Origin: Candidatus Latescibacterota bacterium | GTDB lineage: Bacteria; Latescibacterota; UBA2968; UBA8231 | Direction of reading: 5' to 3' | Length of the DNA stretch: 64,000 nt | NCBI GenBank assembly: GCA_965206595.1 | Contig: OZ242214.1 | Location: forward strand, 5,664,001-5,728,000 | Shown here: positions 53,357 through 54,151 of the stretch, one piece after another | Position numbering within the stretch: position 1 is the first letter of the stretch | Layout: each line of letters starts with the position of its first letter | Made by a program: the position numbers and the translations under genes | Notes under the pieces: generated by a model | What the model was told of the DNA's origin: nothing | The model's database searches: none | The model's input: the letters and a program-made list of their open reading frames with translations, nothing else

Positions 53357-53389
53357 AATCCGGCCCCGGTCAAAGCCGCGGTCCTTCGC

Positions 53390-53480
53390 GCAAGACTACC
53401 GGTTGCCCGCAGAAGCGGAGGCCTTTGTGGGTGTCGCCGCACCGGTGTCCTCGCAAGGCTTCCGCTTCTGTGTTTGAGGC
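53390..53480 (+). ncRNA. Putative structured cis-regulatory RNA/attenuator, copy 1
   Basis: Stem cagaagcggaggcctt...aaggcttccgcttctg (53410-53470), conserved with copy 2. Confidence 0.55.
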
Positions 53481-53532
53481 GGGCCTTCCGGCCCCAGGAA
53501 ATACAATCGCCCCACCCGGTTGGCTCAGACGT

Positions 53533-53558
53533 CCGACACTTTTCCCGATTTGCCGGTA
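53533..53558 (+). promoter_or_regulatory. Promoter-like motif copy C
   Basis: ccgacac-ttttcccgatttg-ccggta. Confidence 0.65.
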
Positions 53559-53634
53559 TGAAACCGTAGCTGAACCGGAACGGAATCAAGGGAACCATGG
53601 GATTGAACGGCGTGACCGAAACGGACCAACTGGA

Positions 53635-53967
53635 ATGACCGATGGTATAACCAAGGCGGCCCTGACTCCTGCCAGGCGCCGCCTTGTCGAAATGATGCAG
53701 GAGACCAACTTCGGGCGCATCGAAGGGCTCGAAGTGCGCAACGGGGAGCCCGTTCTCGATCCACCGCCCAGGGCGGTGCGCCAGATGGTGTTCGGCAAGA
53801 AGAACGGACCGAACGCGGGCCGCTCCAACAGCGGCTGTGCACTCAAGAAGAAAGTGGCGGAATTGTTCGAGGTCTTCGACCGGGAGCAGACGTTCCGGGT
53901 CCTGGAACTCGTGATCGACGATGGCCTGCCCGTCCGCATGACCGTGGCGGACGGGGATCGGACCTGA
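53635..53967 (+). CDS. Hypothetical 110-aa protein, copy 2
   Basis: Same length as copy 1 and highly similar. Confidence 0.85.
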   Translation: MTDGITKAALTPARRRLVEMMQETNFGRIEGLEVRNGEPVLDPPPRAVRQMVFGKKNGPNAGRSNSGCALKKKVAELFEVFDREQTFRVLELVIDDGLPVRMTVADGDRT

Positions 53968-54003
53968 ATCCGGCCCCCAGGGAATAGACACGGTCTTTCA
54001 CAC

Positions 54004-54090
54004 CAGACAACCGGCTGGCCGCAGGAGCGGAGGTCGTTGTGGGTGTCGCCGAGCCGGCGTCCTCACAAGGCTTCCGCTTTTTTGTTTGAG
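54004..54090 (+). ncRNA. Putative structured cis-regulatory RNA/terminator, copy 2
   Basis: Stem ggagcggaggtcgttgtggg...ctcacaaggcttccgcttt running into a U-rich tail (ttttttgttt); upstream of the sigma gene. Confidence 0.6.
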
Positions 54091-54151
54091 GCGGCCTTGC
54101 CGGTCCAGGTCGACCCCTGCGCCCGCTTCTGCCCGGCCCGGAGGAGGCGCA

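Follow-up and report, generated by a model that had tools for sequence, protein, structure and literature searches.

A non-coding spacer of about 190 nucleotides (nt), which separates a gene for a 110-amino-acid (110-aa) protein from a gene for a sigma factor, was analysed in a 64,000-nt stretch of DNA from a Candidatus Latescibacterota bacterium (contig OZ242214.1, positions 5,664,001 to 5,728,000), referred to here as the window and numbered from its first letter. The spacer is a real and strongly conserved phage leader RNA, previously undescribed or at most uncharacterised, and it belongs to a lineage of temperate myovirus-type phages. The reading which we favour, with somewhat better than even confidence, is that of a cis-acting, multi-state RNA switch of the phage sigma gene, in which an upstream hairpin (P1) serves as antiterminator, a long hairpin (T) as terminator, and the ribosome-binding site is masked. 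The leader probably decides the expression of the sigma factor and of the genes behind it.

The core of this reading is an almost invariant G/U-rich segment (54026–54051 in the window), which is complementary to three conserved partners: an upstream segment, with which it forms P1, the downstream arm of T, and a distal segment about 90 nt downstream and about 25 nt ahead of the ribosome-site hairpin, with which it forms a long-range helix (H_far). The three pairings with the shared segment are predicted to be mutually exclusive. In the window, the full-length leader (copy 2, 53965–54154) runs from the stop codon of the second of two tandem 110-aa genes to the start codon of the sigma gene; this leader and all its elements lie on the + strand. 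P1, an irregular hairpin and the antiterminator candidate, occupies 54001–54045 (-23.2 kcal/mol), and its 3' half is the 5' arm of T. T itself, here a terminator stem, extends over 54024–54080 (-37.7 kcal/mol) and is followed by a uridine-rich tract (U-tract), TTTTTTGTTT, read from the sequence at 54078–54087. The distal H_far segment, which can pair with the 3' part of the shared arm, was placed at 54111–54121 by column mapping, and the ribosome-binding site of the sigma gene, GGAGGAGG, is engaged with an upstream pyrimidine-rich segment in a hairpin at 54124–54149, as given by the pairing in alignment A5 (described below) and by local folds. The H_far helix of the window carries one central U-C mismatch and two wobble pairs, a feature common to the sister species (A5 columns 98:198).

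The conservation of these elements was assessed on homologous loci. Scanning one genome per species gave 79 loci with the 110-aa gene, in 62 of which the sigma gene follows after a spacer of 160–198 nt. With 13 viral contigs and 80 of 124 metagenome matches added, the same gene pair, with a spacer of 130–200 nt, was present in 144 of 172 loci, and 20 of the 28 loci lacking the pair stop within 450 nt of the 110-aa gene; 102 spacers were distinct. A covariance model (R1; 190 positions, 33 pairs) was then built on T and the ribosome-site hairpin and run on the window and on 99 loci with distinct spacers, a match being accepted at an expectation value (E) of 1e-8 or lower. It returned 100 full-length matches on the + strand, with 43–208 bits, corresponding to 98 of the 99 loci and to both leader copies of the window; the one locus missed, L100, reached only 29 bits, and the best minus-strand match 30 bits. 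Copy 2 scored 164.1 bits (E 5.5e-46, model positions 1–190), and the two window copies were the only matches in the 7.05-Mb genome to which the window belongs.

All pairing percentages derive from the R1-based alignment A5 (99 distinct rows), which replaced an alignment, A4, that mixed in minus-strand partial matches; the control consisted of the same column pairs slid along the alignment. Realignment to the model was used because insertions and deletions blur the 3' arm of T, the reason why RNAalifold on the MAFFT alignment gave the upstream helix and H_far and not T. T and the ribosome-site hairpin were the structures to which A5 was fitted, so that it favours T in the counts, but neither P1 nor H_far; the same picture emerges from the unfitted MAFFT alignment (A3).

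The additional complementarity of the 5' arm of T was found through RNAalifold and a scan for conserved complementary columns. P1, composed of the upstream helix and a lower CACC:GGUG stem, is 98.4% paired over the 99 distinct sequences, against 27–53% when slid, with two-sided changes in five pairs; the upstream helix alone is 98.6% and H_far alone 97.7% paired. Taken as a whole, the fold with the upstream helix, H_far and the ribosome-site hairpin is 93.7% paired (34–44% slid) and holds 14 two-sided pairs, a number reached by 0 of 500 shuffles, while T with the ribosome-site hairpin has 88.7% of its cells paired (40–50% slid) and 15 pairs with two-sided changes, the two helices of T amounting to 92.1% and 89.9%. 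P1 and T share A5 columns 80–99; the family thus holds a conserved pairing (P1, 98.4%) that excludes the stem of the terminator (T, 90–92%). T folds in all 52 sequences tested, with -26 to -55 kcal/mol, and its 5' arm is almost invariant across the family while its 3' arm drifts; the partner segments of P1 and H_far are among the most conserved letters of the spacer. In addition, the ribosome-site hairpin, which takes up the last 40 nt of the leader, is 82–85% paired with six two-sided pairs, and 70 of 98 local folds (mean -19.8 kcal/mol) leave none of the five ribosome-site bases unpaired. Some covariation was also found in a CCGG:CCGG helix inside the loop closed by H_far.

Three further observations concern the structure of the leader. 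A GAGCGG word downstream of T may, in most clades, pair with the 3' end of that hairpin, as noted by eye and in whole-leader folds, and in L078 and L079 an extra 17-nt insertion at the tip of T (A3 columns 110–128) lengthens the hairpin, which reaches -55.1 kcal/mol. No conserved leader peptide was found in the 100 sequences: frames starting from UUG or GUG after an internal GGAGG run from 5 to 247 codons, and a leader-peptide attenuator was ruled out by these non-conserved lengths.

The alternative folds are linked by covariation. The shared segment rarely changes, and when it is mutated its partners follow (A5). At column 81, C>U is accompanied by G>A in the P1 partner in four of five sequences and in the T partner in three of five; at column 91, the changes U>A (L076) and U>C (L081) are matched by compensation in the P1 and the T partner alike, as is U>C at column 92 (L083, L085). 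Towards H_far, U>C at column 100 goes with A>G (L082, L083, L085, L099), U>A at the same column with A>U (L102), and G>A at column 99 with C>U (L156). One-sided changes are almost all wobbles, for instance 82 G-U pairs at columns 96:136 and 65 U-G pairs at 94:139, and together with the asymmetry between the strands they argue for a + strand RNA rather than a repeat in the DNA. The latter explanation, in which the spacer would be a DNA-level element made of inverted repeats (operator half-sites, an origin, or a recombination or packaging site), draws on the fact that the shared and H_far segments form a 10–11 bp inverted repeat about 95 bp apart, that T is itself an inverted repeat, and that a repressor gene lies nearby. 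Nevertheless, the repeats are perfect only as + strand RNA, the G-U and U-G wobbles being mismatches in DNA and C-A on the other strand; R1 scores 43–208 bits on the + strand and at most 30 on the minus strand, which also folds worse. A role at the DNA level is therefore regarded as highly improbable.

The position of the spacer is clearest in the complete genome of Syntrophus buswellii, where the module lies inside a myovirus-type prophage, between the lysogeny and the replication genes. The lysogeny genes encode a large serine recombinase and a LexA/S24-type repressor, and are followed by two unknown proteins of about 380 aa, the 110-aa gene, the spacer, the sigma gene and an unknown protein of 134 aa; then come a PD-(D/E)XK exonuclease (phrog_1218), an AAA_24 ATPase, DUF669, a RecD-like helicase and a primase, and the structural genes include terminase, a Mu-F-like portal-associated protein, tail sheath, tube and baseplate. 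From this order, the spacer is the sigma gene's leader and marks the point where the first early genes give way to the block of sigma and replication genes. The same prophage module was recognised on the 13 viral contigs with the 110-aa gene. The record titles of the 79 genome loci name Acidobacteriota, Desulfobacterota-type groups, Latescibacterota, Planctomycetota and classes of Chloroflexi, together with Nitrospiraceae, Fibrobacteraceae, Hydrogenedentota, Zixibacteria, Eisenbacteria and others.

Within this family, a single prophage segment with identical leaders recurs across phylum labels at 89–99% nucleotide identity, mostly over all of the 5.3 kb compared (L014, L016, L017, L021 and others), the labels being Ozemobacter, Desulfosoma, Desulfobacterium, Anaerolineaceae, Nitrospiraceae, Phycisphaerae, Pelobacter and Syntrophus. 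Either the phage has a very broad host range or has spread recently, or phage contigs were mis-binned into metagenome-assembled genomes (MAGs); the isolate genomes of S. buswellii and Desulfosarcina cetonica do carry the segment. As for loci that depart from the common order, L057 and L063 keep the 110-aa gene and part of the leader, with the sigma gene deleted, while in L042 and L043 (Dehalococcoidia MAGs) the 110-aa gene is followed by neither leader nor sigma gene.

In the window, the 110-aa gene is present twice, at 53024–53356 and 53635–53967 on the + strand, both taken from the list of open reading frames with their translations; the second copy is 82% identical to the first (88 of 107 residues in the protein alignment). 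The original prediction had pointed out that the non-coding DNA after both genes is conserved, which proved correct (81% identity over 138 of 144 nt), and that each copy forms a long hairpin, which was likewise confirmed, at 53411–53469 (RNAfold, -41.7 kcal/mol) and 54024–54080. The two 144-nt stretches fold on the + strand with -78.1 and -69.6 kcal/mol (z-scores -4.6 and -3.7, with 0 of 200 shuffles as good), their minus strands folding worse (-2.3 and -1.4). The differences between the two hairpins do keep the pairing, as had been stated, but they are one-sided exchanges of G-C for G-U or of U-A for U-G and not two-sided compensations. The U-tract of copy 2 was also found as described, about 65 nt ahead of the sigma ATG at 54152. 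The specific alternative pairing then proposed, between an upstream segment and the apical part of the hairpin (CCGGT with ACCGG, CCGGCT with AGCCGG), exists in both window copies, but is not conserved in homologs: over the 99 distinct spacers its five column pairs are 50.5% paired, like the control slid by one column (54.5%); the apical CCGG is constant, and the upstream letters drift. That pseudoknot or alternative pairing was accordingly rejected. What survives of the earlier idea of a terminator with a switch is a structured + strand RNA before the sigma gene with alternative pairings, though not the pairing specified, and the covariation evidence, which with two copies had been called weak, now comes from about 100 distinct homologs in which other pairings are conserved.

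The first leader copy of the window (53355–53530, + strand, 96 bits with the covariance model) is a degenerate duplicate. It retains T with a poorer U-tract, followed by unrelated sequence; its P1 is mutated and no longer folds, and by column mapping both H_far and the ribosome-site hairpin are missing. The duplication is a local accident, and the RNA after the first 110-aa gene is little more than a hairpin.

The energetics of the leader are of importance for deciding between a switch and a simpler element. P1 has a mean of -21.4 kcal/mol, T being about twice as stable; for the whole leader, the means are -82.6 kcal/mol with T enforced and -72.9 kcal/mol with the upstream helix and H_far enforced, and the unconstrained minimum is the T state in 64 of 98 leaders. 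The anatomy of an intrinsic terminator is seen in window copy 2, where the stem of -37.7 kcal/mol is followed by TTTTTTGTTT, and in part of the family: at least five T in the 9 nt after the stem were counted in 40 of 100 sequences, and window copy 2 likewise has five or more. Since the U-tract is confined to part of the family, intrinsic termination cannot be the whole of the conserved function. The terminator scanner missed T because its loops were limited to 3–8 and its pairs counted to a maximum of 20.

An explanation with no switch at all would take T as a strong terminator, a stabiliser or an RNase III-type processing hairpin which ends the 110-aa gene, the ribosome-site hairpin setting a low translation rate and the other complementarities being by-products of G/U-rich and C/A-rich words. 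It would fit with T being the minimum-energy fold in those 64 leaders and the alternative in none, and with window copy 1 having retained T only; most partner columns are invariant and are uninformative either way. Nevertheless, it is difficult to reconcile with the pairing of P1 and H_far, at 98.4% and 97.7% against 27–53% and 34–44% when slid, or with the two-sided changes in P1 and H_far that track changes in the shared segment. A bare terminator would also leave unexplained why the P1 and H_far partners are among the most conserved letters of the spacer, and many members have no U-tract. For these reasons the explanation is considered unlikely.

Several points nevertheless weigh against the multi-state switch that we favour. 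T is thermodynamically dominant, and in none of 98 leaders did the alternative have the lowest energy. In 42 of 100 sequences T is followed by a weak U-tract or by none (at most three T in 9 nt), so that what is conserved about T may be another role, for example in protein binding, processing or translation. It is not obvious that either alternative fold would open the ribosome-site hairpin. The central U-C mismatch in the H_far helix of the window is a further point. One divergent clade holds most of the compensated changes, which may go back to roughly eight or more independent events rather than dozens; furthermore, the shared segment is invariable in most of its columns, so that much of the support comes from conserved complementarity and not from covariation. 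The sequences are related, which means that shuffle controls overstate significance and that more weight can be placed on the slid controls. At the syntenic locus of a sister species (genome G002, L009:3456–4043), the sigma gene has an in-frame stop at codon 54, so that the remnant may be decaying rather than working. Finally, which fold is ON and what flips the switch are points that we infer from sequence.

With these reservations, the multi-state switch may be pictured as follows. P1 would be made first in the course of transcription and would act as antiterminator or anti-sequestor. T would then nucleate at its apical part and displace P1 unless a factor locked P1, T being the default state; as T is about twice as stable and dominant, P1 is read as needing a factor to hold it. 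The locking factor would most simply be a phage protein encoded immediately before the leader; the 110-aa protein is a candidate effector because of its position only, and a host factor or a ligand would be the alternatives. In lineages with a U-tract, window copy 2 among them, T would terminate transcription before the sigma gene, while the fold with P1 and H_far and the masked ribosome site would add control at the levels of RNA folding and translation. The outcome would be a delayed or conditional expression of the sigma factor and of the genes behind it.

The comparison with known systems helps to place the leader. As in classical attenuators and riboswitch platforms, the 3' half of P1 is the 5' arm of T and the folds are exclusive, a U-tract follows T in at least 40 of 100 members, and a helix masks the ribosome-binding site; unlike them, the leader offers its shared strand a third conserved partner, H_far, and has a U-tract that is not universal, no leader peptide and no match in Rfam. 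In phages lambda (N and nut-tR1) and HK022 (put), an RNA hairpin followed by a terminator stands between the immediate-early genes and the delayed-early or replication genes. The nut and put RNA sites act on RNA polymerase and do not overlap with the terminator, and they occur as paired sites, nutL/nutR and putL/putR. The leader resembles these systems in its position and, in the S. buswellii prophage, in the small phage protein encoded just upstream. It differs in that P1 and T share a strand, in that P1 is a single site, and in that the 110-aa protein resembles no solved structure. In 20 kb of the Syntrophus prophage (L089 searched; L088 and L090 left out), the words of P1 and the shared segment had one site, and the 10-nt distal word had five matches against 1.95 expected.

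The layout also recalls the C4 antisense RNA of phages P1 and P7, in which a central segment is complementary to flanking transcript sequences. It must be considered, therefore, whether the leader is a processed immunity RNA of the kind of P4 CI and phage P1 C4, its invariant segment being excised as a stable small RNA which pairs in cis or in trans with nascent transcripts, stops the sigma and replication genes in the lysogen and confers superinfection immunity. The arrangement is the same: a central invariant segment with complements on both sides, placed before the replication genes of a temperate phage. According to the report on P4, the CI RNA is made by processing of an untranslated transcript and terminates transcription via pairing with seqA and seqC, which lie upstream of CI and downstream of it, by which the replication genes are silenced (PMC4825925). 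The leader is like P4 CI in having a central segment complementary both upstream and downstream, ahead of the replication genes of a temperate element (PMC4825925). Unlike P4 CI and the C4 RNA of P1 and P7, it is without a match in Rfam, the C4/CI family included, for the window or for the locus L014 at E <= 10; its prophage is myovirus-type with a protein repressor of its own, the LexA/S24-like protein that already adjoins the module; and its hosts are anaerobic and environmental phyla. Moreover, folding in cis is favoured by the closeness of all the partners, which are found on one RNA within 150 nt. A processed immunity RNA is thus judged quite unlikely.

The suggestion that the RNA is novel held against Rfam 15, in which the best match over the hairpin in window positions 52000–56000 was mir-254 (20.9 bits against a gathering threshold of 70, E 0.77), and positions 2400–3300 of L014 gave only chance-level matches (E 0.86–7.7). 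Literature searches found no description of this leader beyond a possible unnamed entry in the IMG/VR catalogue. This entry, DNAVirus_1961, is an unnamed 103-nt candidate with 18 unique Caudoviricetes sequences directly upstream of sigma70-ECF genes (PMC10690425), for which two covarying bases are reported, and no function or alternative folds (PMC10690425). By its description it is shorter than the leader (103 nt against about 190 nt), and it may or may not be the same RNA.

The gene downstream of the leader (54152–54742, + strand, 196 aa) is a divergent member of the extracytoplasmic function (ECF)/sigma-70 family, of phage type. It matches Sigma70_r2 with 27.1 bits (cut-off 24) and TIGR02937 with 39.4 bits, under the cut-off of 42.9, and the matches to helix-turn-helix domains in its C-terminal part are all under their cut-offs; its Syntrophus homolog matches phrog_1740, RNA polymerase sigma factor, at 8.8e-18. 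For the 110-aa protein no family was found in Pfam, NCBIfam or PHROG. Among 169 candidate homologs, 145 have E <= 0.001, and the 120 listed are 56–99% identical. The AlphaFold model is confident (predicted local distance difference test 89.7, predicted template-modelling score 0.83) and consists of two repeats of a helix plus a beta-hairpin; compared with the PDB, it had no match, the best Foldseek E being 0.57 and the best Z in a wide VIA-align search 3.3. Its neighbours in a protein atlas are hypothetical clusters only, viral-rich or planctomycete-rich. The model suggests that the protein may have an undescribed fold, that of a conserved phage early protein. The predicted complex of the sigma factor with the 110-aa protein had a score of 0.00.

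A bolder proposal, put forward tentatively and held to be rather improbable, is that P1, whose internal loops hardly vary, senses a small molecule, a host factor or a protein of the phage, the invariant strand passing among its three partners so that the leader works as a multi-state timer or decision device; alternatively, the leader would be a processed immunity RNA like P4 CI. Either would set the entry into a sigma-driven lytic programme. If this were true, phage regulatory RNAs would gain a new class, one that controls a sigma factor encoded by the phage itself, in a temperate lineage that occurs in genomes assigned by their labels to ten or more phyla. Phage sigma factors redirect the host RNA polymerase, and their silencing and subsequent release in temperate phages are known for few systems. 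The leader sits at that control point, in a phage lineage of anaerobic and environmental bacteria without genetics. That one strand has three partners, two of which compensate its changes simultaneously, makes the computational evidence for alternative folds unusually clear. In this context, the leader and the 110-aa protein form a candidate RNA-protein pair, the opposition of P1 to T and, separately, H_far provide hypotheses that can be tested by mutation, and the covariance model R1 can be used to annotate these prophages.

As regards its surroundings in the window, the module is reduced to the 110-aa genes, the leaders and the sigma gene, with the rest of the prophage absent; these three genes and their leaders lie between transposase genes of insertion sequences (IS), DDE_3 and DDE_Tnp_1 upstream and ISL3 downstream. 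Since the flanks, 51277–52535 and 53533–54886, are syntenic with the same-genus genome G002, the remnant is fixed in the genus, and what the window holds is a piece of prophage stranded between IS elements, at a chromosomal place that it shares with the sister species. In the sister genome, the first spacer of the syntenic locus is without RNA copy 1, and about 7 kb away lies a second sigma gene copy (L008), accompanied by a full leader and part of a 110-aa gene. The remnant may be decaying in the sister species and intact in that of the window. No promoter-like site was found in a scan of 52400–55100. The first 110-aa gene is preceded by about 350 nt (52640–53000) that are richer in A+T and hold no long open frame; positions 52544–52728, inside or adjoining this stretch, are common to the sister species. 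Further upstream, a gene on the minus strand (51271–52362) encodes a 363-aa protein with HisKA, HATPase_c and a C-terminal OmpR-type Trans_reg_C domain, an unusual fusion of a kinase to a DNA-binding domain in which the domain search detected no receiver domain, and this gene too is syntenic with the sister species.

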